The notes under the pieces are model-generated. The model was given only the letters and a program-made list of their open reading frames with translations, was not told the DNA's origin and did no database searches. From contig OX597826.1 of assembly GCA_951406725.2 (NCBI GenBank), positions 1-64,000 on the forward strand: a stretch of DNA of 64,000 nt, in the 5' to 3' direction. Below, piece by piece: positions 5,905 through 64,000 of the stretch. How positions within the stretch are numbered: position 1 is the first letter of the stretch; every line of letters begins with the position of its first letter. This stretch comes from Octopus vulgaris (Eukaryota). Both the position numbers and the translations under genes were made by a program.

Positions 5905-6540
5905 CTGAAATGTACCACACACAATAAGTATATCAAAATAGTTTCTAGTATTTTTCCTAGCCCATAATTTATGATAATTGAAGTTCTTACAGTAAATAAA
6001 TACCTACTAAATCAGTAAATCGAACATTACATCCACGTAACTTATCGTTTCTGCAAATGAGACCTATACGTTAAGTAATAGGCATACAAAGAACAATTGC
6101 TGATGTTGATTTGCTTCACTAAAGGCGGTGCTCCACCATGGTCACAGTGAAATAACTGAAAGAGTCTACGAGCGACAAAGTCTATATTACGATAACTACA
6201 TACTTAAGGGAAATAACTACAAAGTATCTTCTACAGTTACTTCCCTTAAGTATTAAAATATAACAATAATAAAAGATTATTTAGGGAAATTAACTCTCGG
6301 AAGGGAGATAACTAGATAACATCTTCCAGAGTTACTTTCCTTACATATAATTATACTACTTTTATTTAAATTATAATACGCAGGGGAAATAACTCTCGAA
6401 AATATTATTCAGACATGACAGACTTTTACGATTTATTGGAGTTTAACTGCTCTCTCTAGTGAGTCGGATGTCCCATTATGGCCATCCCTTATATGTTTAA
6501 ATATCTAAATGTATATACATAAATCTGTCAATATATACCT

Positions 6541-6581
<41 letters not shown>

Positions 6582-9192: not shown

Positions 9193-11083
9193 TATACTGG
9201 AGCGCCGCCTTTAATCGATCACATCGTCCGCAGCACATATTCTTTGTAAGCCTAGTATTTATTCTAACTTATTCTCTTTTGCCGAACCGCTAAAATACAG
9301 GGAGTCAAACACACCTGTATCGGTTAAAAGCATCAACAACTACAGTCAATCGAAGATAATGACCAAACTGTCTACTCTTATCCACCAGTTCCAACACGGT
9401 TTAACCAAAAAGGAGACAAATTGCTTGACTAGATTTGACTGCAAAGCCAGTAACATCTATGGACTTCCCAAAATCTACAAAAGTTAAGCCATAAACAAAA
9501 CCTGTAACAAGTTAACTTCTATAGCCATAAATATTCCACACCCGATAGATCTCCGAATGAGGCCAATTATGGCAAATCCAGGTATGTAGATACGGGGTGA
9601 TTAACACTCGCAAATCTGAAGTCGCTAAAGGTGCAATAAATCGAACTTCTTTTCATTTAGAACTTGGGGATCTGCAAATGTGGGTATCTTAGAGATGTTT
9701 AAAGTGTTTGTTGTAGCTGTAATTGTCGCATACAAACAGACGCTCACACACACGTATACACAGAAATAAAAACATTCACACAAACACAAACACTGAAATG
9801 AAAACAGTTACATACCTACCCATGCACACACACAAACATACGCACCCACACAAACATACGCACCCACACACAGAAATGAAAACGCAGTTACACATTCACA
9901 CATAAAACCCTAACCCTAACTAGCACAAACATACAATTTATTAAGAATGTAAAGGGGCATTGGGTGCTTTGCACTCGCAGTTAGAATATCATCTCCCTCC
10001 ACGCCAGTATGAGAATTTCTTTCGTCCACTTGTGAAATTAATACATTGACGACACATGGGAAAAATATGAACAACATCTCAAGTCACTAAAGGTGCAATA
10101 AATTGAACTTATTTTGATTTAGTAATTTGTGATTTCAAATGTGGGTATCTTAGAAAATGGTCAATGTGTTTGTTGTAGTTGTAAGTGTCGCACACACACA
10201 AACAAATAGAAACACTCAGTCGCTCACACAAACAAATAGAAACACTCTGTGATTTCAAATGTGGGTATCTTAGAAAATGGTCAATGTGTTTGTTGTAGTT
10301 GTAAGTGTCGCACACACACAAACAAATAGAAACACTCAGTCGCTCACACAAACAAATAGAAACACTCAGTCGCTCACACACTCGCGCACACAGAAATAAA
10401 AACACTCACACACAAACACTGAAATGAAAATACCAACACTCACATAAATAAAAACAGTCCCACACACACAAGGAGCCCCAATAGGTCTATCAAAAAAGTT
10501 TCTAGTATTTTTCCTAGCCCATAATTTATGATAATTGAAATTATTACAATAAATAAATACCTACTAAATCAGTACATCGAACATTACGTCCCCGTAACTT
10601 ATCGGTTCTGCAAAATAGACCTATACATTAAGTAATAGGCATACAAAGAACAATTCCTGGGGTTGATTTGCTTGACTAGAGGCGGTGCTCCACCATGGTC
10701 ACAGTGAAATAACTGAAAGAGTCTACGAGCGACAAAGTCTATATTACGATAACTACAAAGTATCTTCTACAGTTACTTCCCTTGAATATTATAAGTTTAC
10801 AATAAAAAGTTAATACGCGGGGCAATTAACTCTCGGAAGGGAGATAACTAGATAACATCTTCCAGAGTTACTTTCCTTACATATAATTATATTACTTTTA
10901 ATAAGTTATAATGAGCAAGAGGAAGTAACTTTCGAATATATTATTCGAACATGACAGACTTTTACGATTTATTGGAGTTTAACTGCTCTCTCTAGTGGGT
11001 CGGATGTCCCATTATGGCCATCCCATATATGTTTAAATATCTATATGTATATACATATATCTGTCAATATATACCTATGTATA

Positions 11084-11132
<49 letters not shown>

Positions 11133-13553: not shown

Positions 13554-14196
13554 CGACATATAAATACACAAACACATACATGTGTGTGTGTGTGTGTATA
13601 TAAAGGTGCAATAAATTGAACTTATTTTGATTTATTATTTAGTGATCTCAAATGTGGGTATCTTACAAATGCTCAAAGTGTTTGTTGTAGTTGTAAGTGT
13701 CGCACACACACAAACAAATAGAAACACTCAGTCGCTCACACACTCGCGCACACAGAAATAAAAACACTCACACACAAACACTGAAATGAAAATACCCACA
13801 CTCACATAAATAAAAACAGTCCCACACACACAAGGAGCCCCAATAGGTCTATCAAAAAAGTTTCTAGTATTTTTCCTAGCCCATAATCTATGATAATTGA
13901 AATTATTACAATAAATAAATACTTACTAAATCAGTACATCGAACATTACGTCCCCGTAACTTATCGGTTCTGCAAAAGAGACCTTTACATTAAGTAATAG
14001 GCATACAAAGAATAATTCCTGGGGTTGATTTGCTTCACTAAAGACGGTGCTCCACCATGTTCACAGTGAAATAACTGAAAGAGTCTAAGAGCGACAAAGT
14101 GTATATTACGATAACTACATACTTAAGGGAGATAACTACAAAGTATCTTCTACAGTTACTTCCCTTGAATATTATAACTTAACAATAAAAAAATAA

Positions 14197-14646
14197 CGTA
14201 AGGGGGATCAGCCATCTGAATGTGGCTTGGGACAGGGCGGGGTGGTGGGGGTGTTACTGATGCTTTTAGCTCCGGGCGATCATCAACGTCACCAGAAGGA
14301 CTGACACCATATAGGTGTCCTCGTTTGCTTGTAAAAGGAGGTTATCCTTCCCCGAAGATACAGATGCTACATACGGACCGGTTTCGAGGTCATTGCCTCT
14401 TATCAACGTATGGTAAGCACCGTTCCTCGATGAAGGATTCCCTCTACAGGCAAAATATATAAGACTTTTCACAGTAACTACAGTCACTGATGTAGAAAAG
14501 CCGTCTGAAAACAATAATAAATCTCTGAACGAGATATAAACAGTAACTGCTCGACAACGTAAGGGGGATCAGCCATCTGAATGTGGCTAGGGACAGGGCG
14601 GGGTGGTGGGGGTGTTACTGATGCTTTTAGCCCCAGGCGATCATCA
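14197..14646 (-). mobile_element. Non-coding retrozyme / Penelope-pLTR-like element A (361-bp monomer plus 92-bp terminal direct repeat)
   Basis: Direct repeat 14195-14286 / 14556-14647 with 3 mismatches; 13-bp TSD AATAAAAAAATAA at 14184-14196 and 14647-14659; absent at the equivalent site of duplicon copies 1 and 2; contains a hammerhead. Confidence 0.82.
14363..14421 (-). ncRNA. Minimal type-I hammerhead ribozyme (U3-A8 core variant)
   Basis: Minus strand reads GGUGC-UUAC-CAUACG UUGAUAA GAGG-CAAUGA-CCUC GAAA CCGG UC^ CGUAUG-UA-GCAUC: perfect stems I and II, palindromic ACCGGU in place of stem III, GUC cleavage triplet. Confidence 0.85.
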
Positions 14647-14931
14647 AATAAAAAAATAATATGCAGGGAAATTAACTCTCGGAAGGGAGATAACTAGATA
14701 ACATCTTCCAGAGTTACTTTCCTTACATATAATTATTTTACTTTTATTAAATTATAATGTGCAAGAGGAAGTAACTCTCAAATATATTATTCAGACATGA
14801 CATAGACTTTTACGATTTTTTGGAGTTTAACTGCTCTCTCTAGTGAGTCGGATGTCCCATTATGGCCATCCCTTATATGTTTAAATATCTATATGTATAT
14901 ACATATATCTGTCAATATATACATATGTGTG

Positions 14932-14994
<63 letters not shown>

Positions 14995-15166: not shown

Positions 15167-15251
<85 letters not shown>

Positions 15252-20400: not shown

Positions 20401-20547
20401 CTTGATGTTAAGAAGGGCATCCAGCCATAGAAACAATGACAAATCAAGACTGGAGTCTGCTGCAGTCCCTCAGCTTACCAGCCCTGATGAAACTGTCCAA
20501 CTCAAGCCAGCATAGATAATGGACATTAAATGATGATGATGATGATG
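17500..20547 (+). mobile_element. Degenerate RTE-clade LINE remnant (17500-17685 and 19684-20547) split by a Gypsy insertion
   Basis: MKLTERIIAQLIRKRLNLDEMQFGFVSGRNT..IFLVR before the LTR; degenerate match to the 58.1-kb RTE ORF and 3' UTR with (TGA)n tail after it. Confidence 0.7.
17686..19683 (+). mobile_element. Internally deleted Gypsy-type LTR retrotransposon relic
   Basis: Diverged LTR pair ~17686-17950 and ~19497-19683; purine tract GGAATTGGGGAGGG before the 3' LTR; RT N-terminal relic PVLVHWQEELKAGLDRNVPLGVIKPIP and integrase C-terminal relic [16 protein letters not shown]...NTPD..THLSPAMCIFG. Confidence 0.75.
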
Positions 20548-21281
20548 ACAATTCTTTTTGTAAAACTTTTGCATTTTATGCTGAACATCTAGTTTAAAGT
20601 TAATTTTATAGATTGAATTTTCATTTCCAGTGAAATCAATTTTAATATTTCAAATTCAAAAATATTTAACAAAATATAATGAGAAACTGAAGCAAGTACT
20701 ACTTCTATATTTGTAAAAACAAAAAGAAACAAATAGAGGAAAATGAGCAAAATTGTGCAAAAGTGAACTAAGAAACAGAATACTGTGTAAGGCAAGAGAC
20801 AACTGTATTTTATGAAAGTACCATATTGCATAAACACAAAAAAAAGAAACTATTGCAGAGGGAATTAAACTGAAACAGATATCAACATGACACACACAAC
20901 CCATGCTAGTATGGATAAAATGATTAGATATTTCTGTCGAGAGAAAATTCAATGACAATCTTATGCAACCAACAATAACCTCAAACTTATCAGATTATTG
21001 TAGATGAGCAACAACTCAAGAAAACCTGTCAAAATACTATGTTCTTACAATGAATTAATTGCAAGTATTTAAGTATGTAGACAACATAATTTCATGTTTT
21101 ATATGCATCAATACATGTGTAAAAATAAGTCTCATACCTACGTTCATTTTTCCATCCTAGCATGAGTTTGAAAAATATAAGATTTGATAGTTGGGTAACG
21201 TTGCCGTAGCTAATGCTAATTTTCTACTAAAGGTTTTCTTTTTTCTTTCAAAGTGCAGTTCTAACAAATGATACATTTGTA

Positions 21282-29639: not shown

Positions 29640-30135
29640 ATATATAAAAATACAAAAGGGGACAAGAACGCAGAACATCCAGAAGACTATACAAAAAGCA
29701 CGGACGGGTCATTCGAAGCCTTTAATCTTCAGTCAAGAACCGGATCATCGGCTGATTAATCTTGGGATTGCTCTAATCTGGCCATCCCCAAGGAAAAGAA
29801 TAGCTAAGAGCATTAGATTCATTGGAAAAAAAGCTTCGAATGTATAGGACACAAGGACGGAAAAACGGACGATGTTACACGAATATAAATACAAAAATAA
29901 TACGAAAAAATAATAATAATAATATCAGGACATCACAACAGGCGTCTTTCGACTAGAGACGAATTGAATTCAGCAGGCGTGTAAGGAATTGAGCCTTACG
30001 GCAGAGAAAGGAAATGTTGATGTTTCAGCGACCTCGGCCAGACACAGAAAGGCCAGTAGTCCGCCAAGCGGACACGTGAGAAGATAAGAGAGAGGAAAAG
30101 GGGAACAAAGGAATTAAGAAGGGGGAGAAGAGAGA
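29640..30135. repeat. Unclassified interspersed-repeat-like segment abutting the satellite
   Basis: More GC-rich block after (TA)n with internal inverted motif CATTCGAAGC / GCTTCGAATG; no ORF. Confidence 0.3.
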
Positions 30136-33100: not shown

Positions 33101-34720
33101 GATTTGATTTCTACTTCTAGCAAGTGAAGCAAGGATTTAGAGGATCTGATGTTGTTCCATTAGAATAGAAAATTGTGATAATACGGAGATTTGACTACTA
33201 TTTCTATCAAGTCAAAGATCTATTTAGAGGATCTGACATTGGTCCATTAGAATAGAAAAGCGTGAGCTGAGGAAGATTTGCCTGTTATTTTTAGCAAGTT
33301 AAGGAACTATTTAGAGGCTCTGATATTGGTCCATGAGAATAGAAAAGTGTGATCTGATTATGATTTGACTACTATTTCTAGCAAGTCAAGCAACTATTTA
33401 GAGGATTTGACATTGTTCCATTGGAATAGAAAAGTGTGATCTGAGGAAGATTTGTCTCCTCTTTCTAGCAACTCAAGCAACTTTTAAGATCATCTGACAT
33501 TTGTTGATTAGAATGGAAAAGTTTGATCTGAGGAAGATTTTATAGATATATCTAGCAAGTCAAGGAACTATTTAGAGGATCTGACATTGTTCCATTAGAA
33601 AAGAAACGAGTGATCTGAGGAACATTTGATGGCTATTTCTAGCAAGTCAAGCTTTTATTTAGACGATCTGACATTCTTCCATTAGAGTAGAAAAGTGTGA
33701 TCTGAGGAAGGTTTCACTGCTATTTTTAGCAAGTCAAGCAACTATTTAGAGTAACTGGCATTGATCCATTAATACAGAAAAGTGTGATCTAAGGGAGATT
33801 TGACTGTTATTTCTAGCAAGTGAAGCTAATATTTAGAGGATTTGATATTGTTCCATTAAAATAGAAAAGTCTGATATAAGGAAGGTTTGACTCCTATTTC
33901 TGTCAAGTCTAGCAACTATTTAGAGGATCTGACATTGTTCAATTAGAATAGAAAAGTGTGATCTGATGAAGATTTGACTACTATTTCTAGCAAGTCTAGT
34001 AACTATTTAGAGGATCTGACATTGGTCCATTAGAGTAGAAAAGAGTGATATGATGAAGATTTGACAGCTATTTCTAGCAAGTCAAGCTTTTATTTAGACG
34101 ATCTGACATTCTCTCATTAGAATAGAAAAGTGTGGTCTGAGGAAGATTTGACTGCTACATCTTGCAAGGAAAGCAAATATTTAGAGGATCTGACATTTGT
34201 CGATTAGAATAGAAAATTGTGATCTGAAGGAGATTTGACTGCTATTTCTATCAAGTCTAGCAACTATTTAGATATCTTGACATTGTTCCATTAGAATAGA
34301 AAAGAGTAAGATTTGATTGCTATTTCTAGCAAGTCAAGCATCTATTATTAGGATCTGACATTGTTCTATTAAAATAGAAAAGTGTGATCTAAGGAAGACT
34401 TGACTGTTATTTCTAGCAAGTCAAGCTTTTATTTAGACGATCTGACATTGTTCCATTAGAATAAAAAAGTGTAATCTGATGAAGATTTGATCGCCATTTC
34501 TTGCAAGTGAAGCAACTATTTAGAGGATCTGATATTGGTCCATTAGAATAGAAAAGTGTGATCTTATAAAGGTTGACTGCTATTTCTTGCAAATCAAGCA
34601 ACTATTTAGAGGTCATGACAATGGTCCATAAGAATAGAAAAGTTTGATCGAAAGGAAATTTTGACTGCTCTTTCTAGCAAGTGATGGAACTATTTAGAGA
34701 ATCTGTCATTGGTCTTTTAG

Positions 34721-35118
34721 TTAGTTAGTTAGTTAATTTTTTGGCTCAAATAGCAAAAAGCAAGGCCATGTAGGGGGACAAGGAGTTATGTACAGGGTGG
34801 TGTTCATGTAAAGAGTTCAGGCCACTTGAGGTCAAGGGAGACTTTGAACCGAGCAGTCATCGGCATCTTCACCATCTCATCTGGCAGCTTATTCCACTGA
34901 TCCGCAACCCGGACGGAGAAAGCCCCTCTCCTTCAATTGAGATGAAATCGTCGCAGATAGAGCTTTTCGGAATGACCCCACGGCCGATGCTCTGGAGCAG
35001 GAGTGAAGAACAGCTCTTTCGAGAGGTTACACTTTCCGCTTATGATGTTGTGAGCAAGAATGAGATCTCCACGGCATTGTCATTTTTCTAGAGAATAAAG
35101 GTCGAGCGTCTTCAGCCT
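34721..35118 (-). mobile_element. Short 5'-truncated CR1 copy inserted in the satellite (same family as 12513-13518)
   Basis: Reverse complement of ~13119-13518 including the (TAAC)n tail; TTTAG at both junctions. Confidence 0.92.
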
Positions 35119-36540
35119 TTAGAATAAAAAAGTGTGATCTGAGGAAGATTTGTCTCCTCTTTCTAGAAATTCAAACAACTATTAAGAGCATGTGACATTG
35201 GTCATTAGAATAGAAATGTGTGATCTGAGGGAGATTTGACTGCTATTTCTAGCAAGTCAAGGAACTATTTAGAGGATCTCACATTGGTCTATTAGAATAG
35301 AAAAATGTCATCTAAAGGAAGTTTTGACTGCTATTTCTAGCAAAGCAAGCAACTATTTAGAGGATCTGACATTGGTCTATTAGAATAGAAAAGTGTGATC
35401 TGAGGAAGATTTGTCTCCTCTTTCTAGCAAGTCAAGCAACTATTAAGAGCATCTGACATTGGTCCATTAGAATAGAAAAGTGTGATATAAGGAAGATTTT
35501 CCTGTCAATTATAGCAAGTCAAGCAACTATTTAGAAGATCTTATATTGGTGCATTAGAATAGAAAAGTCTGATCTGAGGAAGATTTGATTGCTATTTCTA
35601 GCAACTCTAGCAACTATTTAGAATGTCTGACATTGTTCCATTAGAATAGAAGCGAGTGATGTGAGGAACATTTGATTGCTATTTCTCGCAATTGCAGCTT
35701 TAATTTAGAGGATCTGACATTGGTCTATTTGAATAGAAATGTGTGATCTGAGGGATATTTGACTGCTATTTCTTGCCAGACAACCAACTATTTAGAGGAT
35801 CTGACATTGGGCGACTAGTATAGAAAATTGTGATCTGAGGGAGATTTGACTGCTATTTCTAGCAAGTCTAGCAACTGTTTAGATGATCTGATATTGGTCC
35901 ATTAGAATAGAAAAGTGTGATCTGAAGGAGATTTGTCTGCTATTTTTAGAAAGTCAAGCAGCTATTTAGAGGATCTGACATTGTTCCATTAGGATAGTAA
36001 AGTGATCTGAGGAAGGTTTGATTGCTATTTCTAGCAAGTGAAGCAACTTATTTTGAGGATCTGACATTGGTCCATTAGTATAGAAACGTTTGATCTGATG
36101 GAGATTTGTCTGTTATTTTTTGCAAGTCAAGAAACTATTTAGAGGTTCTGACATTGTTCCATTAGAATCGAAGAATGTAATCTGAGGAGGATGTGATTTC
36201 TATTTCTAGCCAGTCAAGCAACTATTTAGAGGATCTGATATTGTTCTATTAGAATAAAAAAGTGTGATAATACTGAGATTTGACTACTATTACTAGTAAG
36301 TCAAGGATCTATTTAGAGGAGCTGACATTGGTCCATTAGAATAGAAAAACATGAGCTGGGGAAGATTTGACTGTTATTTTTAGGAAGTCAAGAAACTATT
36401 TAGAGGTTCTGACATCAGTCCATGAGAATAGAAAAGTGTGCTCTGATTAAGATTTGACTGCTATTTCTAGCAAGTCAAGCAACTATTTAGAGGATTTGAC
36501 ATTGTTCCATTAGAGTAGAAAAGTGTGATCAGAGGAACAT

Positions 36541-36961
36541 TTACTCTTTACTCTTTTACTCTTTTACTTGTTTCAGTCATTTGACTGCGGCCATGCTGGA
36601 GCACCGCCTTTAGTCGAGGAAATCGACCCCGGGACTTATTCTTTGTAAGCCCAGTACTTATTCTATCGGTCTCTTTTTGCCGAACTGCTAAGTGACGGGG
36701 ACGTAAGCACACCAGCATCGGTTGTCAAGCAATGCTAGGGGTACAAACACAGACACACAAACACACACACATACATACATATATATATATACACATATAT
36801 ACGACAGGCTTCTTTCAGTTTCCGTCTACCAAATCCACTCACAAGGCATTGGTCGGCCCGGGGCTATAGCAGAAGACACTTGCCCAAGATGCCACGCAGT
36901 GGGACTGAACCCAGAACCATGTAGTTGGTTAGCAAGCTACTTACCACACAGCCACTCCTGC
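36541..36961 (-). mobile_element. Full-length tRNA-derived SINE inserted in the satellite
   Basis: Complete head, body, microsatellite and tail ending in (AAAAGAGT)n; the satellite monomer resumes in register. Confidence 0.92.
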
Positions 36962-38005
36962 TTTGATAGCTATTTCTAGCAAGTCAAGCTTTTATTTAGA
37001 TTCCATTAGAATAGAAAACTGTGATCTCAGGATGTTTTGACTGCTATTTCTAGCAAGTCAAGCAACTATTTAGTGGGTCTGACATTGGTCTATTGGAATA
37101 GAAAAGAGTGATCTGAAAAAGATTTGTTTCCTCTCTCTAGCAAGTCAAGCAACTATTAAGAGCTCGTGACATTGGTCGATTAGAACAGAAAAGTCTGATC
37201 TGAGGGAGAATTGACTGCTATTTCTAGCAAGTGAAGCAATTATTTTGCAGATCTGACATTGTTCCATTAGAGTAGAAAAGTGTGATCTAAGGAAGACTTG
37301 ACTGCTATTTCTTGTAAGTTAAGAAACTATTTAGTGGCTCTGGCATTGGTCCATAAGAATAGAAAAGTGTGATCTAATTAAGATATGACTGCTATTTCTA
37401 GCAAGTCAAGCAACTATTTAGAGGATTTAACATTGTTCCATTTGAATAGAAGTGTGATCTGAGGAAGATTTGACTGTTATTTCTAGCAAGTCAAGCTTCT
37501 ATTTAGACAATCTGACATTGGTCAATTAGAATAGAAAAATGTGATCTGAGGAAGATTTGTCTGCTCTTTCGAGCAAGTCAAGCACTATTAAGAGCATCTG
37601 ACATTTGTCCATTAGAATAGAAAAGTGTGATCTGAGGGAGATTTGACTGTTATTTCTACCAAGTTAAGCAACTATTTAAAGGATGTGACATTGGTCCATT
37701 AGAATAGAAAAGTGTGATCTGAGGAAGATTTTACAGTTATTTCTAGCAAGTCAAACAACTATTTAGAGGATGTGACATTGGTCCATTAGAATAGAAATGT
37801 GTGATAATACGGAGATTTGACTATTTCTAGCAAGTGAAGCTACTATTTAGAGGGTCTAAAATTGTTCCATTAGAATAGAAAAGCGCAATATGAGGAAGAT
37901 TTGACTGCTATATCTTGCAAGTCAAGTAATTATCTAGAAGATCTGACATTAGTCCATTAGTATAGAAAAGTGTGATCTGAGGAAGATTTGAATGCTATTT
38001 CTAGC

Positions 38006-38419
38006 AATCTGGTGACCCCATAGGTATATCAAAAAAGCTTCTAGTATCTTTCCTAGCCCATAATTTATTATTATAATTGAAGTTCTGATAATAAATTAAT
38101 ACCTACTAAATCAGTAGCCTGAGCAGAATCTGGTGACCCCATAGGTATATCAAAACAGTTTCTAGTATCTTTCTTAGCCCATAATTTATTATTATAATTG
38201 AAGTTCTGATAATAAATAAATACCTAGTAAATCATTAGCCTGAGCAGAATCTGATGCTCCCAAAGGTATATCTAAAAAGCTTCTAGTATCTTTCCTAGAT
38301 CATAATTTATCATTATAATTGAAGTTCTGATAATAAATACCTACTAAATCAGTATCCTGAGCAGAATCTGTTGCCCCCATAGTTATATCCCAAAAGTTTC
38401 TAGTATCTTTCCTAGCCCA
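38006..38419. repeat. ~121-bp minisatellite, ~3.4 copies
   Basis: Unit starts AATCTG at 38006, 38127, 38248 and 38365. Confidence 0.92.
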
Positions 38420-42398: not shown

Positions 42399-44414
42399 TC
42401 ATCATCATCATTGTTCACGGTCCATCATAGCATTACGGAGGTCCTGTTGCTGGATGCCTGTATCCCTGGAGATTACATCAGGGTAGGAGAGTGTGCGCCC
42501 TCTGGTGTTGCGAGTAGATGGCTTCCAGAGGAGAAGAGTAGAAATTACTTCTTTTTCAGCTCTACAACAATGTCCAGCAAACTGGACTCTCCTACCTTTC
42601 ACAAGAGATGACACAGGTGGTAATTTCCCATATATTTGCATTTTGGTTGGATGGCGCCTCCACGAGAGATTTTGAGCTCTCATAAGGAGGCGAGTGTAGG
42701 TTCCATCCAACCGCCTCTCAAGCTTCTTTGATAACGTCCAGGTTTCTGAGCCATATAGTAGGATTGGTTCAACTGTGGCTTTGAATATTTCAAGTTTGAA
42801 GTCTCTACTTAGATTTGATGACCAGATCTTATGCATGTCATTACAGGCTGACCAGGCCATACCCTTTCTAGTTAGAAAGTCTTTTGCAGATGATGATATG
42901 TATAACCCAAGATATTTATAATCAGAAACCATATTTAAAGGCGCACTGTTGAGAGTGTGGATGATGCAGTCACTGTTGGACAGGCACTTGTTTATGTATT
43001 CAGTTTTGGCCTCATTGAGGTAAAGACCTACACAATTTGAGGCTTGTTCAAGAGATTGTAAAAGAGACTGGGCATTGGAGAGAGAATCACTGATAAGAGC
43101 GATGTCGTCAACAAAGTCAGTGTCTGTCAAGTACTCAGCTGGGTGTCTGGAACTTCTTCTTGGTTTTATTTCAAAGCCCTTGCCAGAGATGGTATCAACT
43201 GACATACGTAGCACATAATCAACAACAATGATGAAAAGAAATGGGGCGAGTGTGTCTCCCTGCAGTATTCCGGCTTCGATTGAGAAAGATGATGTTTCTC
43301 CATCAGGGGTTAAGATGGCTGAAGACGTATCTGTGTAGAGGACCTTGATGGCAGAAATAATTTTGTCTGGTATCCCATAGAGCTTAAGGATTTCAAACAT
43401 CTTGCACCTATCTACAGAATCGAACGCTTTAGAAAAGTCTACAAATACCATTGCAAGATCGCGATTAAATGCTTTTGATTCTTCAATAAGTCTGCGCAGG
43501 CATAGTATCTGGCTCAGCGTTGAGCGCCCATGTCTGAATCCATTTTGGTTCTTTCGGAGCAAAGGTTCAACAAAAAGGACAAGACGATTTAGGATCAGTT
43601 TGTTGTACAGTTTTGCAGCAATTGACATTAAAGATATGCCCCTGTAGTTGGTGACGAGGGACAAATCGCCTTTTTTGGGTATTGGAATAATTTGAGATTG
43701 GTGCCAAATCTTTGGAGCGACAAAGGTGGAAAGTGTGTGGTTGCAGAGGTTGAGCAAAAGTGTGTGAAATCTATCATCCTTCCAAATCACAGCCGGAATG
43801 TTGTCGGGACCAAATGCTTTCGAGGCTTTTAGTTGCTTGGTGGCTGCTGTTAGTTCAAATATGGTAAAAGGGGAGGTGTTGATGTCCAGCGTGTCTGATA
43901 TAGGCACACTTGGGAGAGTGGGGTTATCAGGGATTTTGGCATTCTTCCCAAGGAGGTTTTTAAAATGGGTTGACCAATTTTCTAAACGCTTCTTAGCTGA
44001 TCCCCCTTTAATTCTAATTGATGACCCAGAATTTTTGCCTGATAGGTCTTTGATGGATTTCCAGGCGAGATGGTGCTTTTTACTAATGTGCTCTTTCGAT
44101 AGTTTACTAATTTTGCCATTGATAAATTCGACCTCGGCGTTCAAGTAAGCCTCATCAAGATTCTTCCTGGCAGCTATGAGTTGGATCTTCAGTGACTGGG
44201 ATGGAGAACGGTGGTAAGCTAGTAATATAGATGGTTTCTGGCTTCGATGACATTTGGGGAATTAGGTTTGCTCTGGCCCCTACTCTTCCTTTTGGGAAGA
44301 GTAGCCAATGCAACTTCCTCTGTTGATTTGATGAGGCTGCTGTATACTTCCTCAATGTTCTCAGCATCTATTTCAGAAGTAGACAGAGATTGAAATTCTG
44401 TAGACAGAGATTGA
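42399..44414 (-). mobile_element. 5'-truncated RTE-type LINE with (ATG)n tail
   Basis: 10-bp TSD AACAACTACA at 42389-42398 and 44415-44424; empty site visible at ~4700 and ~9336. Confidence 0.93.
42408..44144 (-). CDS. LINE reverse transcriptase ORF (578 aa uninterrupted; endonuclease region lost)
   Basis: GPDNIP, NYRGISL, QNGFR, FVDFSKAFDSV, GILQGDTLAPFLF, DFVDD, YKYLG and LLYGSETW. Confidence 0.88.
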   Translation of the reverse strand: MNAEVEFINGKISKLSKEHISKKHHLAWKSIKDLSGKNSGSSIRIKGGSAKKRLENWSTHFKNLLGKNAKIPDNPTLPSVPISDTLDINTSPFTIFELTAATKQLKASKAFGPDNIPAVIWKDDRFHTLLLNLCNHTLSTFVAPKIWHQSQIIPIPKKGDLSLVTNYRGISLMSIAAKLYNKLILNRLVLFVEPLLRKNQNGFRHGRSTLSQILCLRRLIEESKAFNRDLAMVFVDFSKAFDSVDRCKMFEILKLYGIPDKIISAIKVLYTDTSSAILTPDGETSSFSIEAGILQGDTLAPFLFIIVVDYVLRMSVDTISGKGFEIKPRRSSRHPAEYLTDTDFVDDIALISDSLSNAQSLLQSLEQASNCVGLYLNEAKTEYINKCLSNSDCIIHTLNSAPLNMVSDYKYLGLYISSSAKDFLTRKGMAWSACNDMHKIWSSNLSRDFKLEIFKATVEPILLYGSETWTLSKKLERRLDGTYTRLLMRAQNLSWRRHPTKMQIYGKLPPVSSLVKGRRVQFAGHCCRAEKEVISTLLLWKPSTRNTRGRTLSYPDVISRDTGIQQQDLRNAMMDREQ

Positions 44415-46231: not shown

Positions 46232-47522
46232 CGAGGGGCGTTCAATAAGTAATGCCCCTGGCCCACTTCCCATAGCAGTAGAGCAACGAAACTTGGCACA
46301 GTTATTAGTCTTTTTCTACATAGGAACCACCCAGAGTTACGCATTTCTTCCATCGTTTGATGCAGCTCTGAAGACCATTTTTGTAGAAGACCCCAGCTTT
46401 GTCCTCCAACCACGACGTGACTTCAGAAATCAAGGCTGCATCATCTGGGAAACGCTTTCCTTTCAAAAACAACTTCATGGCTGGGAAGAGGTGAAAATCA
46501 GAGGGTGCAAGGTCAGGAGAGTAGGGAGAATGGGGGATGAGTTCATAGCCGCACGCCTGTACTTCTGATCTGGCGACACACGAGTTGTGGACCGGAGCGT
46601 TGTCCTGCAGGAGGAGGATGCCTTTGCTGATCTTGCCCCGCCTCTTGATTTTGATAGCTTCTCTTAATTTCCTCAAAAGTGAAGCATAATAGACTCCTGT
46701 AATTGTGGTACCCTTTGCCAGGAAATCTGTCATCACTACTCCGTCCTGGTCCCAGAAGACTGTGAGCCTGACCTTGTCAGCGGAGGGCTGCACCCTTGCC
46801 TTCTTTGGAGGAGGTGAGTCACGGTGCTTCCACTGCATTGACTGGGCTTTGGACTCTGGATCATAGTGATGAACCCAGGTTTCATCCTGTGTAATCAGTC
46901 TTTTGAAAAATTTTGACTCATCTTCTTGGCACATCTCCAAATTCACCCTCGAGCAATCGACACGTTCTTGCTTCTGGAAAGGTGTGAGCAACCTGGGAAT
47001 CCATCTGGCAGACACCTTTTTCATATGCAAATGGTCATGAATGATAGTTTCCATAGACCCGGTACTAATCTTGACCTGATGGGCTATTTGGCGAATAGTT
47101 ATGCGTCGATCTTCCAAAATGGCAGCCTCAACTTGACAGACAGATGCCTCATCAATGGCAGAAGGCGGCGACCAGATCTGGGAGCTGTTTCCACAGAGTT
47201 CCGACCATGTTTGAATTCACGATGCCAGCGTTTTACAAGGTCATATGATGGGGCATCATCACCATAAGTTACTTTCATTTCATCAAAAGTCTCCTGTGGT
47301 GTGCGTCCTTTCAAATACAAAAACCGAATCACTGCTCGGCACTCAACAGGCTCCATTTCACACTTGACTCGGTTCAAACACCTGTAAATCAGAAAACACA
47401 ATTAGTTCAGAGCTGTAATTTGCCACTTAATCTATAGAGATATAAATAATTGCACAGGCAAAATTTTAGCTAGATCAAACAACTGCAAGTGGGTCAGAGG
47501 TATTACTTATTGAACGCCCCTC

Positions 47523-47796: not shown

Positions 47797-50700
47797 CTTA
47801 GAATAACTTAGAAAGGTTTTGGCCAGTATTGGCCCAGGCCATGTCTAACTTAATAGCACCAACTGGCGAAGTCTTTCAATTCAGGATTTGGGCACCGAGG
47901 CCTATTCGAGCAGAGAGTTATTGTTTACGGAGACATATCCGGGTGTGGGTGGTTTGTCCGGGACTGTTTGAAGGAGTTTGTCCAAAGACTTCTTGAATTT
48001 TGTGTGGTCAGTTTCTGTTTTGACGTGTCCTGGTGTAATGTTGAAGAGAGCGGGTCCAATTGAGGTGAAATAATTGTGCCGTATTGTCGTTATGTGATGC
48101 GATTTAGATTTTTGTTGTGGACGGATGGCACGTGGTCCAAGCCTTGGATGTATTTTGAAGGTGATGCCAACATCATTCGGACAGTGCTGATGGAATATTT
48201 TCCACATCATACAGATAATGTAGCGTTCACGGCGTCGTTGGAGTGAATACAGTTTGAGTTTCTGTAGTCTACCCCAGTAGTCAAGGTCTGACATGCCATC
48301 TATCTTTTTTGTGATTGACCTTTGGGGAGCTTCAATTCTCATAATATTTTGTTTTGTGCAGGGAGACCACAGTGGACAGCAGTATTCAAGGTGGGGTCGG
48401 GCAAAAGTGGAGAAAAGAAGGATAATGGTGTGAGAATCTCTCGACTGGAAGGTTCTGAGAATCCAGGAACACATTCTGCGGGCCATATCAACTTTGCTGC
48501 TTATATGTGTAGCCCAGCTTATGTTGTTGTCCACTGTTACTCCCAAGTCTCCGATGTTGTTAGACGCCATGAGTATTTCTCCAGAAGGAAGATAGTATGG
48601 GAGTTTCAGAGCGTCCTCCCTTCCAAAGTGGATCAGTTCGAATTTGTCTTCATTTAGCAACATGTTGTTCTTTTCTGCCCATTGGACAACAGCCAGTAAG
48701 TCTGACTGAAGGCTTTTTCGGTCATCCACGCCATTGATAACCTTCTGGAGCTTGGAATCATCAGCGAAGGTTCTGATGTTACTGTGTTTGATGGTGTCAG
48801 TAATATCAATAATGTAGATGATGAAGAGAAGTGGGCCCAACACAGTGCCTTGTGGGACACCACTGCTGACTTTGGCTGGGCTGGATTTGACTCCTTCGAC
48901 TACAACAGGTTGGGTTCTGTTAGACAGGAAGCACTTGATCCACTGCAGCAGCTTTCCAGTGACACCAATATTGAACAGCTTTCTCAAAAGGATCTTATGA
49001 TCAACCCTGTCAAAGGCCTTGCTGAAATCAAGGTAGATGACATCAGTGTTGGAACCCTCTCCCAAGGCTCTCAAAATGTCATCAAAATGATGCAGTAGCT
49101 GCGTCAGGCAATCTCTTCTATTACGGAATCCATGCTGGTTGGAGTTCAGCATATTATGACTCTCGAGGAAGTGAGTCATACGCGATCTCAGCACTCTCTC
49201 AAATACCTTAATGATATGAGAGGTGGGTGAGATTGGACGGTAATTCACGGCAAGCGATTTGTTTCCTTTTTTGAAAACTGGGACAACAGGCTGGGATAGA
49301 AGGTCTTCTGGTATATATCCAGCATCCAGTGAGTTCCGCCACAGATTGGCTAGAGGGGGTGCAAGTTGGTGTTGACACATCTTCAAGACACAAGCAGGGA
49401 ACCTATCGTGACCTACTGCTGAATTATGCTCCATTTCTTTTATTGCTGCTAAGACATCAGGAGCGCCAAAGGTTATGTCCGATAAAGTGCATTAAGGAGT
49501 AACATCACTGATACAGCCCAGATCAGTCATATCAGGATTGCTGAAAACAGAGCAATATTGTTTCTGCAATATCTCTCCCATGGTTTTGGCATTGTCTTGA
49601 AGAGTACCATTTTCATCAATCAGAGGGCCAACAGTAGAACCAGTGACTCTGTGTTTTTTTGCAAATGAAAAGAACACTTTGGGATTGAGTTTGATCTTCT
49701 CAATGGCCCAGACCTCTTCAGCGCTTCTCTGACTATTGATGATAGATATGTTGTTTTGGAGTTTATGTTTTTTAATCTCTAGTGACGAGATGGCAGTCAG
49801 GTTGGTGTGTTGCTGTTGACAGTATCTCAGCTTGTTGATTTTTTTTGTTAATTCTTTTAATTTTCCTGATGAGAGATTTTCTATTTCTAGGGATTCGACA
49901 CTTAGATTTGTTTGCAGATCTTAATGGGGTGTGTTTTGCACATATTACTCTTTTACTCTTTTACTTGTTTCAGTCATTGGAGCACCACCTTTAGTCGAGT
50001 AAATCGACCCCGGGACTTATTCTTTGTAAGTCCAGTACTTATTCTATCGGTCTCCTTTGCTGAACCGCTAAGTGACGGAGACGCAAACACACTAGCATCG
50101 GTTGTCAAGCAATGCTAGGGGGACAAACACAGTCACACAAACACATACACACACACACATATATATATACATATATACGACAGGCTTCTTTCAGTTTCCG
50201 TCTACCAAATCCACTCACAAGGCATTGGTCGGCCCGGGGCTATAGCAGAAGACACTTGCCCAAGATGCCACGCAGTGGGACTGAACCCGGAACCATGTGG
50301 TTGGTTAGCAAGCTACTAACCACACAGCCACTCCTGCGCCTTGTTCGTAATGGTGTCTACAAATGACTGCTAGGACTTTTTGATGTTAGTGAGTGTGTAT
50401 GTGTGCGTGAAGGACCAATCGACTTGTACAAGATCATTATTGATCGCTTCCCAGTTTGCATTGTGGAAATCCATAGTGTCAAATGGATGAACAGGAGGGA
50501 TGACATTTGTTTTGCATTTTGGCCGGTGAAATCTCAGATCACAGAGAACCATGTCATGATCAGAGAGTAGAGTTTTCTCCACTGCAATATTGTGGATAGT
50601 ATCAGTGTGATTGCAGTATCCATTGGAAAATATGTTCATAGCTTCTGTTGAGAATGAATCATGAACATAAATGGCAGTCCCACCCTTTCTTCTGCCAGCA

Positions 50701-55443: not shown

Positions 55444-56739
55444 CGGGGGGAGTAGCATGCCTACCAGCCACACGGTTCCAGGTGCAGTCCCACTGCGTGG
55501 CGCCTTAGACAAGTGTTTTCTTCTATCGTCTTGGGCCGACTAAATCTTTCGAAGTCCACAGTAACGTCTGTGGACTTCCGAAAATCCACAAAAGTGAGGC
55601 CATAAACGAAGCCTGTAACAAGTCAACTTCTATAGTCATAGATATTCCACACCCGAGAGTTCTCCAAATGAAACCAATTATGACCGATCCAGGTACGTAG
55701 ATACGGGGTCATTGTGTACTTAGCACCTGCAGATAGAATATCAGCCCCCTCCACGCCAGTATGAGAATTTGTTTTATCCACTTGTGAAATAATACGTTGT
55801 CACCATATGAGAAAAATATGTGCAATATTTTAAGTCGCTAAAGATCCAATAAATTGTGATTTCTTTTGATTTAGTAGTTAGTGATCTGCAAATGTGGGTA
55901 TCTTAGAGATGCTTAAAGTGTTTGTTGTAGCTGTAATTGTCGCACACACACAAAAAAATAAAAACACAGTCGCTCACACACACGTACACACAGAAATAAA
56001 AACATTCACACAAACACAAACACTGAAATGAAAATACCAACACACACTTTCACACACACAAATAAAAACAGTCCCACGCACACAAACACTGAAAAAAAAT
56101 TCTCACACATACACACACTCACATACGCACAAACACACACACAGAAATGAAAATACACAGCTACATATTCACACAAACACGCGGACAAACACTGAAATGA
56201 AAACAGTTACATACCTACACATGCACAAACACACAGACACACACAAATAGAAATGAAAAATACACAGTTACACATCCAAACTCTCACACACTCACACACA
56301 CACACACACACACACAGAAATGAAAATAGTAACACACAAACATACGCACCCACACACAGAAATGAAAACACAGTTACACACTCACACATAAAACCCTAAC
56401 CTTAACTAGCACAAACATACAAGTTATTCAGAATGTAAATGGGCATTGGGTGCTTTGCACTCGCAGTTAGAATATCAGCCCCCTCCACACCATTATGAGA
56501 ATTTCTTTCATCCACTTGTGAAATTAATACATTGTAGACACATGGGAAAAATTTGAGCAACATCTGAAGTCACTAAAGGTGCAATAAATTGAACTTATTT
56601 TGATTTAGTAGTTAGTGATCTCAAATGTGGGTATCTTAGCAATGGTCAAAGTGTTTGTTGTAGTTGTAAGTGTCGCACACACACAAACAAATAGAAACAC
56701 TCAGTCGCTCACACACTCGCGCACACAGAAATAAAAACA

Positions 56740-56776
<37 letters not shown>

Positions 56777-57167
56777 AAATGAAAATACCCACACTCACAT
56801 AAATAAAAATAGTCCCACACACACAAGGATCCCCAATAGGTATATCAAAAAAGTTTCTAGTATTTTTCCTAGCCCATAATTTATGATAATTGAAGTTCTT
56901 ACAATAAATAAATACCTACTAAATCAGTATATCGAACATTACGTCCCCGTAACTTATCGGTTCTGCAAAAGAGACCTATACATTAAGTAATAGGCATACA
57001 AAGAATAATTCCTGGGGTTGATTTGCTTGACTAAAGGCGGTGCTCCACTATGGTCACAGTGAAATAACAGAAAGAGTCTAACAGCGACAAAGTGTATATT
57101 ACGATAACTACAAAGTATCTTCTACAGTTACTTCACTTGAATATTATAATTTAACAATAATAAAATT

Positions 57168-57603
57168 ATAATTAAATCTCAGAATGAGATTGAAACAGTA
57201 ATCGCTCGATAATGTAAAGTATAGAAGCCATCTTATCATGGCTAACCACATTGGGGAGGGGGTGTTACTGTAGCTTTATAGCCCCAAGAGATCTTCGTCT
57301 CTAGCTGGCCTTAGACACAATATCAGTGTCCTTGGAGTATTTGCAAAGGGAGGCCATCCCTTCCTCGCAAGCCTGAGTGATACGCTCGAACTAGTTTCGG
57401 GATTGTTGTCCCTCGTCAACGGGCGGTAACCACCAGGTAGCGATGAAAGTGAAGGCTGCTTTGCAAACATATATAAGTTTTTCTAATGGCGTCTGCCACT
57501 GATGTCGAAAAACGAACAGTAAGCATAATTAAATCTCAGAATGAGATTGAAACAGTAATCGCTCGATAATGTAAAGTATAGAAGCCATCTTATCATGGCT
57601 AAC
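57168..57603 (-). mobile_element. Non-coding retrozyme / Penelope-pLTR-like element B (357-bp monomer plus 79-bp identical terminal direct repeat)
   Basis: Direct repeat 57168-57246 / 57525-57603; motif-for-motif homology to element A with a different start point; contains a hammerhead. Confidence 0.8.
57372..57437 (-). ncRNA. Minimal type-I hammerhead ribozyme (U3.G8 core variant)
   Basis: Minus strand reads CCUGGUGG-UUAC-CGCCCG UUGACGA GGGA-CAACAA-UCCC GAAA CUAG UU^ CGAGCG-UA-UCACUCAGG; palindromic ACUAGU; one C-A mismatch in stem I; GUU triplet. Confidence 0.78.
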
Positions 57604-58088
57604 TCGTAGCTATTTATGTTTTACACATGTTGACCTTAAAACCGTGACATTCTGTGTCTGTTTGCGCGCGCATTTCTGTGAGAATGATTGCTCACGAACC
57701 GCAATGTGCTGAGTTCAAACCAACAGCGTTGCACCTTCGGCAAGTGTATTCAACTATAGCCTAGGCCAAGGGCCGACCAAAGTATTCTGAATGGAGTTGG
57801 TAGAGGGAAACTGAAAGAAGCCCGTCGTATATGTGAATATCGGCGTAGGAATGGCTACGTTGTAAGTAGTGTGCTTGCGAACCACATGGTTTCGGGTTCA
57901 TTCCCACTGCCTGTAATCTTCTGCAATTGTCTACTATTGTTGCCCAGGGCCGAGCTAATCCTTGCGATTGGATTTAGTGGAAGGAAACTGAAAGAATCCC
58001 GTCGTATATATGTTTAAATGTGTGTGTGTCTGTGTATGTTTGTTCGCACTCGAAGGGCACACGAGAATGCACGCACGTACTATCACAC

Positions 58089-59047
58089 ATAAGAATAGCT
58101 TGGGCAAAGTACAGAGAGCTCTTACCTCTGCTGGTGACAAAAGGCCTCTCGCTCAGAGTAAAAGGCAGACTGCATGACGCGTGTGTACGAACAGCCATGC
58201 TACATGGCAGTGAAACATGGGCCGTGACTGCTGAGGATATGCGTAAGCTCGCAAGAAATGAAGCCAGTATGCTCCGATGGATGTGTAATGTCAGTGTTCA
58301 TAATCGACAGAGTGTAAGTACTTTGAGAGAAAAGTTGGACCTAAGAAGCATCAGATGTGGTGTGCAAGAGAGACGTTTGCGCTGGTATGGACATGTGGCG
58401 AGAATGGATGAAGATAGTTGTGTGAAAAAGTGCCACACCCTAGCGGTTGAGGGAACCTGTGGAAGAGGCAGACCCAGGAAAACCTGGGACGAGGTGGTGA
58501 AGAACGACCTTCGAATTTTAGGTCTCACCGAGGAAATGACTAGAGACCGAGACCTCTGGAAGTATGCTGTGCGTGAGAAGACCCGGCAGGACAAGTGAGA
58601 CCATAACCGTATGTAGCCAGTCCACTTATGCATACCTTCCCTTCTTGGGACACAAAACTCTACTTGTGAAGACCTGTTGAGGCAAGTGAAAATCAGAATC
58701 GAAATCGATCAATGGAAATTGCAGTTGAGTTATCAGTGCCGGTGGCACGTAAGAGAACCATCCGAACGTGGCTGTTGCCAGCGCCGCCCCGACTGGCCTC
58801 GTGCCGGTGGCACATAAAAAGCACCATCCGATCGTGGCCGTTTGCCAGACTCGTCTGGCACCTGTGCCGGTGGCACGTAAAAAGTACCCACTACACCCAT
58901 GGAGTGGTTGGCGTTAGGAAGGGCATCCAGCTGTAGAAACATTGCCAGATCAAACTGGGCCTGGTGCAGCCTTCTGGCTTCCCAGACCCCAGTTGAACCG
59001 TCCAACCCATGCTAGCATGGAAAGCGGACGCTAAACGATGATGATGA

Positions 59048-60008: not shown

Positions 60009-63000
60009 AGCCCTCATCCCTGCTTTTCTATGCTAAACCCGATATAAAACAGTGATCTACACTCGAAATAAACCTGTTCAATTTCTACCCTCCTCATCAC
60101 CCCAAATCCTAACCCCCAGTTCAAACTTTGATCTCTTACCTGACTATTCTCTCTAAAAACCCTTCACAAACCCCCAAGCTGACCCTAATATAGACTAAAC
60201 TCTGAAAACCAATCCTAACAGCAAACCCACACCAAAATAAGAAAAACCACTTACCTTTGGCCATTTGGGATCTATAATACAAGGCATGATATGCAAACAA
60301 CAAGCAAAATATCAACCAACATTTGAAAGTCAAGTTTTATCTATGTGTCGAATCATGAAATACACTTGTTTAATAAATACAGTTGTCCTTACATTTACAC
60401 AGTACATTGCTTCCACAAGTCATCAAACTAATCATTCAAATGCGAAATCAATTGTTTTTATTTATAAATAGAAACAAATTAATTATTGAAATTAATATAA
60501 GAAATACAATTAACGTGTATGTGTGTCATCATCATTTAACATTCGTTTTTCATGTTGTCATGGGTTGGACTATTTCACACTATCTGAGATGAATTACTAC
60601 ACGCACATTTAATGTCTGTTTTCACATGGTTTCTATGTCTGAGAAAAGTTTTGGTAACACTAACACAAGTAAAATTAATAAGTAAATTTCAAGGATGAGT
60701 GGATTGCTAGTAGTGAGAGAGGTGGCTTCATCATAACCTGTAGTATAATAGAGAGACAGACAGAGGTGTGTTGCTGTAGAGAAAGTACATGGCTACCCTG
60801 CATATATGTATGTATATAGGTAGACATCGATTAGAGCGCTTTCTCATTGCTAATATGTTAACATATGCTTGATGTGTGCTTTAAAAATAAAGTGCTCGCA
60901 CTGGCACTAATTTCTTCAGATGATGAAAATCACGGAGAGGATCATAGCCCAACTAATTAGGAAAAGACTTAATCTAGATGAGATGCAATTTGGTTTTGTA
61001 TCAGGAAGAAACACCAGTCATGATATATTTCTGGTAAGAAACCCCCAGGAGAAGTACCTAACCAAGTATAAACCTCTGTACTTGACTTTTGTTGGTATCA
61101 TAATCATTCAGGTAATAACAGATGAATATAAAACAGGCAGACCCTAGCAACTCCTCTATGCTGATTACAGGATTACAACTAAACACACATATATTACAAT
61201 TTATTACATTACATTCAATTCACCATATATTATTCATTTTATTATCCATCATCTTTCCCTTCACATTTCAGGTATACTGAAGACCCTTTATTCATTGCTT
61301 CAGACTGCGTAAAATATTGGTGAAAGCAAACAGTTGTCAGACTTATTTATGACAAAAAGCGAGTCAGTATGACCAACGTACCCTGTCCTGCACCTGATTG
61401 TGCCATGAGTTGGCCTGTAAACAATCCATGGGAGAGAGTACTGACAAGCCTCATAGATCATCTGCAAAGATGACACAGAATGTATGCACCTGCCACTTAC
61501 AACAAATACAACCTCCTCCTCCAACTACACTACCATTCCCAGCCACTGAGGAAAAACGTTTTCGCCTGAGGAAGTAGCTGCTACAATACTACAGCTCCAG
61601 CACATTCAACATCTGCAACCATCGGCAATTCTCCAAGATGTCTGACCAACCGATCCGCTTAATGCTAAACCAGTCGCCCACCATACGCCCATACCAGTCC
61701 TGGTTCATTGGCAAGAGGAAGTAAAAGCAGGTCTCGACCGGAACGTTCCACTTGGAGTTATAAAGCCTATCCCCATTGGTACATCTGTCACTTGGTGACA
61801 GACAATGGTGGTATGTCCTAACAGGTCTGGAAAACTATCTTAAAGGAGCATCGAATGGCACACAGGCACTTAACACTGCCCTATCAGCTATGAGCTGACA
61901 TTGTACCTTCTTCCACAATTGGGGAGAATCACCGCCATTGCATTTCCCCATGACAACTGCCGCGCCAAAGTCGGTATTGAGACAATAAAGTGCCTCGTTA
62001 CAGACAACACAGACACCAATGGCTTCCTTAACACTGACAGTTTCCAGTGCACAATGCTACAATAAAGAAATACACTTGACCGGGGGACACACTTGTCCCC
62101 AGCCATGTGCATCTTTGGCAGCCCTATACAATACTTTATTCCCATCCATCCCGGCAAGTACAAGCTACATTCCACATGGCATGAAACTATGACTTATTGA
62201 AAAGAAGACCTGCGTAAACACAACATGAATGCTACTGAACGGTTGTCAAAACACACATGCTCACTTATTTCGAACTATGTCCTAATCCAGAGCCAAGTTT
62301 GACCCAATCCTACAAATGGCGGGGGGGGGGGACTGGTGCCATTTCGATGTACGTCATTTCGATCCGTACATGTTGAGAGTGGATGGATCAGGCCGAGTAA
62401 CACTGTGCAACAAAATTCCTCTGGAAGTATCTACTGCTTCTTCCCCACGCCCCACTGCTCATGGTGTCTGAACCACCTGCGTTCTTCACGCCAACACCAG
62501 TGATGAGACTACCTTCTCAACCGACTTTAACAGCACCTCATGCAGCTGCAACACCAATGCCCACTTCACGACTCCAAAATTACCATGACCAGAAATGCAT
62601 CTCACCGCCTACCCACAGAGCCACACCAACAAGTGGTCATACCCCAACACCCCTTGAAACCCCTGCTTTCCAAAAGTGATCCTTGCCTGATGCAGTTTAT
62701 CCTCCATCCAGCAATTGTCCTGTTTGTCGCTCTGCCAGACTCGCAAAGACTGGCACAAAAGTCTGACGCACAACTGACACGTTGCTCCTTGATCGTCACA
62801 CCGTCAATATTGATTAAGGGTCTTTTGCACAAATTTTTATTTTCGTTAATCATTTAATACATATTATTAGTCTTCTTTGCTTCTTTCAAAGGAATTGGGG
62901 AGGGCATAGAGGATGACAACTGAACACTCATATATTATCATTTATTACATTACATTCAATTAGCCATACATTATTCGTTTCATTATCCAAATATTTTCCT

Positions 63001-64000
63001 TCACGTTTCAGGTATGCCGAGGACCTTTGTTTTCATTGCTTCAATCTGTGTACATAAAGTGTTTGTGAAAGCAAAGAGTTTTCACACTTATTTACTAATG
63101 AGCTTCTTCTTATAGCTAAATCACTACCAGAACTAGAATAAATTTTGCGTACGGAAGCAAGGTCTAGAATTGAAAGGTCACAGAATTAACCTACCCAACC
63201 CTAACCCAAAGTCTTAGTAAGTAGGAAACCAGATAAATCGTAAAGCCCTTCAGGTACATGGCCATCCTCAATATGAAGGAAACAGGTAGGTAGATGTACT
63301 CTGTATAACACATAATAGGTGTAGCAATATGAGAGGAAGGTAAACTGGGAAAATATTTTTTGTATGTGGAAGGTGCATAATGTACAGTAAAAACTAAAAA
63401 TGCACAGAAAATGGGCTTCATCAAATGCCAGAGGAGTACGTTAGAGATCGTTGAGCAACAAAGTCAGTAGCAGAAGTGGATGAACCAAGAGTGTAGATGC
63501 AAGAATAAAAATAGGCTGAGCAAATTCAGAGAGCTCCTTCCTCTGTTTGGTAACTAAGGGTCTCTCCTTCAGAGTGAAAGCCAGATTTATTATACCTGTG
63601 CAGACAACTATGCTACATGGCAGGAGAAGTAAACATAAGAAGGCATTGGACAAGGTGGTAATGCATGATCTTTGACTGTTGAAACTTATAAAGGCAATGA
63701 CTAATGACCGACACCTTTCATGACATGCCGTGCCTTAGAAGACAATATTATTGTAATTAATTTTCCATCAATTAATTTTTTTCACAACCCCTGCCCACAA
63801 CACTGATGGAGTGCTTCATATTAAGAAGAACATCCAGCCATAGAAACAATGACAAATCAGACTGGAGTCTGCTGCAGACCCTCAGCTTACCAGCCCTGAT
63901 GAAACTGTCCAACACATGCCAGCATGGATAATGGACATTAAGTGATGATGATGATGATGATGATGACAATTCTTTTTGTAAAACTTTTGCGTTTTATGCT
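60009..64000 (+). repeat. Segmental duplication copy 2 including the RTE and Gypsy relics; runs off the window end
   Basis: Collinear near-identity with 16605-20582 with small indels. Confidence 0.95.

Follow-up and report, generated by a model that had tools for sequence, protein, structure and literature searches.

Offset, overlapping ends of two hammerhead retroelement copies in Octopus vulgaris fit known Penelope-type insertion

Two minus-strand inserts in a 64,000-nt stretch of Octopus vulgaris DNA, analysed as a whole and called the window below, are best explained as insertions of a non-coding type I hammerhead retroelement of ~ 360 nt, a non-LTR retrozyme and non-autonomous Penelope-like derivative. 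The two copies, A (14195..14647) and B (57168..57603), start and stop at different points of one cycle. What is observed is a cyclic unit, a covarying ribozyme, inserts that cross its cut site, a TSD at A, a deletion at B and a shared target position. That the ends are offset and overlap is confirmed, and this arrangement fits the known Penelope-type mode of insertion; alone, it does not prove that a circular RNA was copied.

Both copies have their RNA sense on the minus strand; B comprises 1.22 units of 357 nt and A 1.25 of 361 nt. The terminal repeats of B (57168..57246 and 57525..57603) are identical at 79/79 positions; the former would be the RNA 3′ end and the first part to be reverse-transcribed, the latter a 5′-truncated partial unit. 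Those of A (14195-14286 and 14556-14647) agree at 89 of 92 positions, differing at 14228, 14271 and 14274. The seam of B, at 57524|57525, is colinear with uninterrupted sequence in A, and the seam of each copy is crossed gap-free by homologous uninterrupted sequence of the other. The cycle is therefore real, with a cyclically defined unit and no local duplication. After rotation to the cut site, the two units match in 230 of 366 alignment columns (230/352 ungapped, 65% identity), and the local alignment score of A with B is 189, whereas 300 dinucleotide shuffles average 21.5 and peak at 30.

A sequence-only reading of this DNA had listed a series of motifs in one cyclic order, and all of them were found in both copies; TAGCCCC is exact in A only in the second repeat, the first reading TAGCTCC. 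The reading had also placed both ends of B 40-55 nt earlier in the cycle, which agrees with measured offsets of 43 columns on the left and 57 columns on the right, the latter corresponding to 51 nt of B and 56 nt of A. The units of 357 and 361 nt have a GC content of 0.448 and 0.463, respectively. Apart from two fragments with E-values of 1.7 and 4.2, nhmmer detected no third copy in the window, and no tandem array of the unit is present there, only the partial tandems of 1.22-1.25 units. The copies share no coding frame: the longest stop-free stretches are 100 aa (A) and 68 aa (B), and the 100-aa frame has no match in Pfam. A search for an origin in prokaryotes or phages returned 0 matches across prokaryotic genome contigs, phages and plasmids.

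A covarying type I hammerhead is predicted on the minus strand of both copies, and it parses in full despite weak Rfam scoring. In B it occupies 57377..57433, with the cut at 57389|57388, and features a U3.G8 core, a GGGA/UCCC helix II, the palindromic helix III ACUAGU, U17 and one C.A mismatch in helix I. Its counterpart in A (14364..14420, cut at 14376|14375) has a U3-A8 core, a perfect 6-bp helix I, the palindromic helix III ACCGGU and C17. In both, helix I contains a UUAC/UA internal loop, helix II has 4 bp and a CAA-type loop, and helix III consists of a 2-bp stem within a 6-nt palindrome. A U3.G8 pair, U17 and a mismatch in helix I would each be expected to weaken hammerhead cleavage. 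Nothing specific was found in the literature on the activity of U3.G8 hammerheads; the U3-A8 pair of A is a documented core covariation (PMC4209133).

The hammerhead of B is matched by Rfam Hammerhead_HH9 at 57367-57437 on the minus strand (E 8.9e-6, 31.2 bits, under the gathering score of 52), that of A is absent from the Rfam matches, and the whole window yields 0 matches at the gathering threshold. The remaining Rfam matches near A and B, with E-values of 0.047-6.7, were taken as chance. A pattern search for type I hammerheads returned that of A as the sole match in the window without picking up that of B, and found none on the plus strand. Comparing the two hammerheads, 33 of 34 cells are paired and five pairs have changed on both sides, figures that come from two sequences only. 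In the controls, equally limited to two sequences, 6-12 of 500 shuffles scored as high, and slid controls were 24-47% paired. Circular folds of the minus strand have z-scores of −3.4 and −3.2, with helices I and II formed, and those of the plus strand −1.4 and −2.5 (60 shuffles each). A two-sequence consensus fold also showed 13 double-sided changes, which were discounted as evidence because the fold had been optimised on those same sequences.

The cut site lies 181 and 272 nt from the ends of A and 221 and 215 nt from those of B; as had been proposed, no end falls at the cut site, each being 181-272 nt away. Each insert carries one hammerhead, so that on its own neither locus can give rise to an RNA or circle of unit length. 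An array could arise through recombination between the terminal repeats.

Just upstream of the hammerhead, both units display a conserved, putative bidirectional core-promoter-like layout (14428-14499 and 57441-57511; motif positions in B, 57441..57500). Each has a TATA motif, an Inr-like (T/C)CACT ~ 20 nt off on the plus strand and TTCATC ~ 30 nt off on the minus strand; in B, TATA is at 57470-57477 and the Inr-like CCACT at 57496-57500. The same TATA/Inr layout is described for a rotifer Penelope pLTR (PMC3846280). The putative minus-strand start is preceded, at a distance of 53-67 nt, by a conserved CACTGATGT.GAAAA block. We take this spacing to be similar to that of an snRNA PSE. A reading of the block as a plus-strand hammerhead was rejected, as it lacks a helix II and fits a promoter element better.

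The host of both inserts is a composite repeat, and two further copies of it in the window are empty at the homologous position: E1 near 6270 (6245..6290, plus strand) and E2 near 10810 (10781..10820, plus strand). Copy A is bounded by an intact AT-rich TSD of 13 bp (14184..14196 and 14647..14659, plus strand), overlapping the element by 2 nt on the left and 1 nt on the right. Since the left end of A adjoins this intact TSD, A was not trimmed later. No TSD is present at B, where a target deletion of ~ 970 bp adjoins the right end; the junction carries a 3-nt microhomology, AAC (57601..57603), and 964-981 bp of the host repeat are missing. The RNA sense being minus, its 3′ (priming) side corresponds to the left junction and its 5′ side to the right one, and the asymmetry of the junctions of B agrees with this polarity. 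Junctions of the same type as in B, with microhomology and without TSD, are described for a rotifer Penelope element (PMC3846280).

The flanks of A and B are identical at 318/335 positions and the elements at 230/352; the flanks being far more alike, A and B are independent insertions. The same comparison (95% against 65% identity) rules out one ancestral insertion duplicated with its flank. Informative flank substitutions (four shared by A and E2, three by A and B, one by A and E1) do not fix the tree of the host repeat.

The 30 nt before the left junctions of the two inserts contain 27/30 and 29/30 A/T. The AT-rich target of B (57136..57167, plus strand), on the presumed priming side, includes the motif ACAATAA[AT]AA at 57154, and both left junctions lie 13-16 nt past this motif in the same orientation. 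Of its five occurrences in the window, four are at the host sites and one is inside A, at 14511. At the position homologous to the left end of B, a 12-nt stretch of A (14510..14521, plus strand) matches exactly the allele of the host target found at B and E1. Eight comparisons were made; in two of them, which are not independent of each other, this match was not equalled by any of 300 shuffles, nothing remarkable emerged from the other six, and the unit of B itself has no such match. The stretch hints at possible self-targeting. Both inserts lie in one repeat family, to which 4 of the 25 AT-rich loci belong once short-period repeats are set aside (P ~ 0.13), and AT richness alone could explain why both are found there. 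With base-level precision and strand included, the shared target has a post hoc P of roughly 0.008; only the base-level coincidence of the target position is surprising.

The left offset stands because the left end of A touches an intact TSD and the extra 43 nt of B repeat sequence one unit off. This tail-like segment (57168..57210, minus strand) forms the RNA 3′ end of B, is missing from that of A and holds the ATCTC/GAGAT hairpin. The sequence-only reading had allowed that the adjacent deletion and a local tandem duplication might together account for the offset of B. For the right end the deletion does offer an explanation, given the AAC microhomology junction; this end, which the deletion or an ordinary 5′ truncation may have set, is uninformative on the template. 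For the left end a local duplication fails, as the extra 43 nt reproduce, in exact cyclic register, sequence that lies 357 nt away. The two copies do not demonstrate the dispersed breakpoints expected of a circular template: the RNA 3′ ends are only 43 nt apart on a cycle of ~ 360 nt (P ~ 0.24 under random starts).

By analogy, the left offset resembles the discrete optional tail of Penelope elements (PMC11167929, PMC8557442). Purified anole Penelope protein is described as having two neighbouring internal start sites for reverse transcription, the source of an optional tail of 30-40 bp, and as nicking AT-rich DNA, its own pLTR included (PMC11167929). The 43 nt between the RNA 3′ ends of A and B, with n = 2, are slightly longer than this tail. 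The published initiation site of the anole element is AC-rich, whereas the start sites in A and B are not obviously so.

For the insertion itself, a Penelope-type RT/GIY-YIG protein acting in trans would nick the AT-rich site, and priming would take place on the plus strand at the left junction. Reverse transcription would begin internally, either 181 or 221 nt past the cut, the two sites being separated by 43 nt (the tail); it would run back through the cut/ligation junction for one full lap and stop 79-92 nt later, and the 5′ side would be joined by 1-3-nt microhomology. The core of this scheme taken jointly, namely the nick and priming in trans, two internal starts and microhomology joining at the 5′ side, is very probably correct. 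The full version, in which the template is an RNA circle made by the ribozyme, we regard as slightly likelier than the alternatives while placing it a little short of an even chance. Both inserts measure one unit plus 79-92 nt, hence less than 100 nt extra (P ~ 0.01, post hoc, under a simple exponential truncation model), and these lengths, with the identical repeats of B, favour a circle as template. As a test for a circle, repeat identity was rejected as uninformative, as 3/92 against 0/79 differences fit age alone. Mussel retrozyme RNA is mostly circular, and reverse transcription of such circles is a published hypothesis (PMC7229834). More-than-unit copying from circles has been proposed previously (PMC4209133, PMC7761336), and partial tandems are known from Penelope elements (PMC2377424). 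The circular or tandem template of the sequence-only reading is borne out in part: the ends are not fixed, and the template exceeded one unit and was continuous across the cut site. Two copies do not separate a circle from an uncleaved tandem transcript, and variable ends with terminal redundancy are what has been described for insertions of Penelope-like elements and retrozymes.

The same target-primed insertion may also be imagined on a tandem-array transcript that stayed uncleaved as a dimer or multimer, with an internal RT start and 5′ truncation, a serious candidate of which we are nevertheless doubtful. Anole Penelope in vitro mainly uses unprocessed, uncleaved RNA and does not need ribozyme cleavage (PMC11167929), a 2-bp helix III within a 6-nt palindrome is of a type that cuts poorly as a monomer (PMC4209133), axolotl shows multimeric RNAs (PMC7229834), and 8/9 Xenopus dimers remained uncleaved in vitro (bioRxiv 10.64898/2026.07.22.740005). 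The ribozyme of B points the same way: with its identical repeats B is probably young, yet it harbors all three features presumed unfavourable for cleavage, so that an uncut template would be favoured. At all three positions at which the repeats of A differ, the left copy departs from the state of B (judged by eye; one in four by chance), and the differences could reflect two different units of an array. A multimer, however, gives no reason for both lengths falling just above one unit, and the identity of the repeats of B, the covariation, which indicates selection on the ribozyme, and the lack of an array in the window also speak against it.

Template jumps have been proposed for Penelope elements (PMC3846280), and the RT might have copied cleaved linear monomers with a precise jump from one 5′ end to the 3′ end of another. 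Here this is improbable: both cut sites are crossed with 0 bases gained or lost, and error-free passage over a cyclic-phosphate end twice seems unlikely. We think just as little of capture at the DNA level, i.e., the patching of a break with a piece of a tandem array or an extrachromosomal DNA circle. The missing TSD and ~ 970-bp deletion with microhomology at B would suit such a repair event, as would the repeat-rich region beside telomere-type repeats; it is hard to reconcile with the 13-bp TSD at A and with two left junctions 13-16 nt past the same motif in the same orientation. Least credible of all are fixed linear termini modified at B by later deletion and local duplication, or an array collapsed in assembly. 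The deletion can account for the right end of B and the identical 79-nt repeats are compatible with collapse, but the left offset is independent of the deletion and largely refutes fixed ends there, the seams are colinear both ways and the TSD of A is intact. Collapse would alter the number of units and not the phase of the ends.

Returning to the retrozyme reading, A and B represent a new member of the non-LTR retrozymes, the non-autonomous Penelope-like derivatives, and they show the expected anatomy of a class already known, that of solo non-LTR retrozymes in partial tandem with junctions of Penelope type. As in that class, they have a type I hammerhead, a unit within 150-450 bp (357 and 361 nt) with GC below 50%, no protein-coding ORF and, where a TSD is present, one longer than 4 bp (13 bp at A). 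Retrozymes termed active carry two ribozymes by the definition of a preprint (bioRxiv 10.64898/2026.07.22.740005); with one hammerhead per locus, A and B are not of this kind and are solo offspring copies. Metazoan non-LTR retrozymes, as described by Cervera and de la Pena 2020 (PMC7229834) with mussel repeats of 350-390 bp and axolotl repeats of 330/350 bp, likewise have a non-coding unit near ~ 360 nt (GC 45-46% here), a long TSD, head-to-tail continuity and a canonical type I hammerhead whose helix III is short and palindromic. In contrast to them, A and B are partial tandems of only 1.2 units, with one ribozyme each and a U3 core.

With Penelope-like elements and their pseudo-LTRs (PMC2377424, PMC3846280, PMC8557442, PMC11167929), A and B share a full unit plus a 5′-truncated partial unit (here 92 nt in A and 79 nt in B, on the RNA 5′ side), what may be an optional tail-like 3′ extension, an AT-rich target, the TATA/Inr layout, a hammerhead, and either a TSD or a microhomology junction without one. 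Unlike those elements, they lack the RT and GIY-YIG ORF of an autonomous element, their offset is 43 and not 30-40 nt, their starts lie 181-221 nt past the cut, and their hammerhead is canonical instead of minimal. Scanning 58 of the 125 window ORFs of at least 85 aa against Pfam revealed RT fragments and transposases, and no Penelope or GIY-YIG ORF among those scanned. Solo or monomer retrozyme derivatives of PLE pLTRs are similar in being dispersed copies with a single ribozyme, for which mobilisation by PLEs has been proposed; the study describing them deals mostly with vertebrates and, in the portion available, holds no analysis of insertion junctions (bioRxiv 10.64898/2026.07.22.740005). 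By description, the ~ 330-nt repeats of Schistosoma SM-alpha and newt satellite 2, in which a promoter precedes a type I hammerhead, are comparable (PMC6765202). In Octopus vulgaris, recently active Penelope families have been reported, with no mention of ribozymes in the main text (PMC13282606).

That Penelope enzymes copy retrozyme circles has been put forward in print as a hypothesis and is not a demonstrated step, and the origin of Penelope partial tandems has been called unexplained (PMC2377424). Short elements of ~ 360 nt with clean empty sites make both matters testable by junction mapping within one genome; two copies are a lead and no answer. What remains of interest from them is the tail-sized offset, the lengths of one unit plus a little and the repeated use of one self-like target. 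A bolder reading, which we consider rather unlikely, is that the junctions are the direct footprint of a Penelope enzyme copying a ribozyme-made circle (discrete internal starts, one lap, a stall within 100 nt of the second), nicking a specific sequence similar to the tail boundary of the element itself (the 12-nt match in A) and thereby homing repeatedly to one subtelomeric repeat site. If true, it would explain Penelope partial tandems and tie retrozymes to the Penelope machinery at the level of single insertions. Literature searches of partial coverage identified neither a report of octopus hammerheads or retrozymes nor a junction-permutation analysis of retrozymes.

The surroundings of the inserts are rich in repeats. 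The window begins with (CTGGC)n at 1-1142, followed by degenerate (CCCTAA)n at 1170-1437; the region 1-1437 resembles a chromosome end or an interstitial telomere array, beyond which lies an unusual array of 5-mers, and given this start the host repeat looks subtelomeric. An AT-rich palindromic repeat of GGGAGATAACT/AGTTACTTCCC units directly follows the telomere-type repeats and holds the insertion site of A and B (1435-1720, 6205-6410, 10745-10945 and 14125-14790). The composite repeat, with SINE-like pieces and CA-rich tracts, is present in four copies (5400-7840, 9825-12350, 13600-15530 and 56330-58090) that are 91-96% identical, with mosaic patterns of indels and substitutions. The SINE-like repeats near A and B presumably resemble octopus SINEs.

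Farther away, a 4-kb direct duplication (16606-20582 and 60009-64000) is 95% identical between its copies, and the scanned ORFs of the 16606-20582 copy gave no Pfam match. Long non-LTR RT ORFs and a mariner-type transposase ORF occupy 42408-44261 (minus), 47902-49491 (minus), 2259-3691 (plus) and 46305-47216 (minus); one non-LTR RT ORF of 617 aa has endonuclease-bearing relatives of ~ 1045 aa at ~ 80% identity. An array of an 87-bp satellite extends over ~ 8 kb (30135-38007) and is interrupted at 34720-35116 by sequence 92% identical to a LINE RT fragment at 13118-13497.
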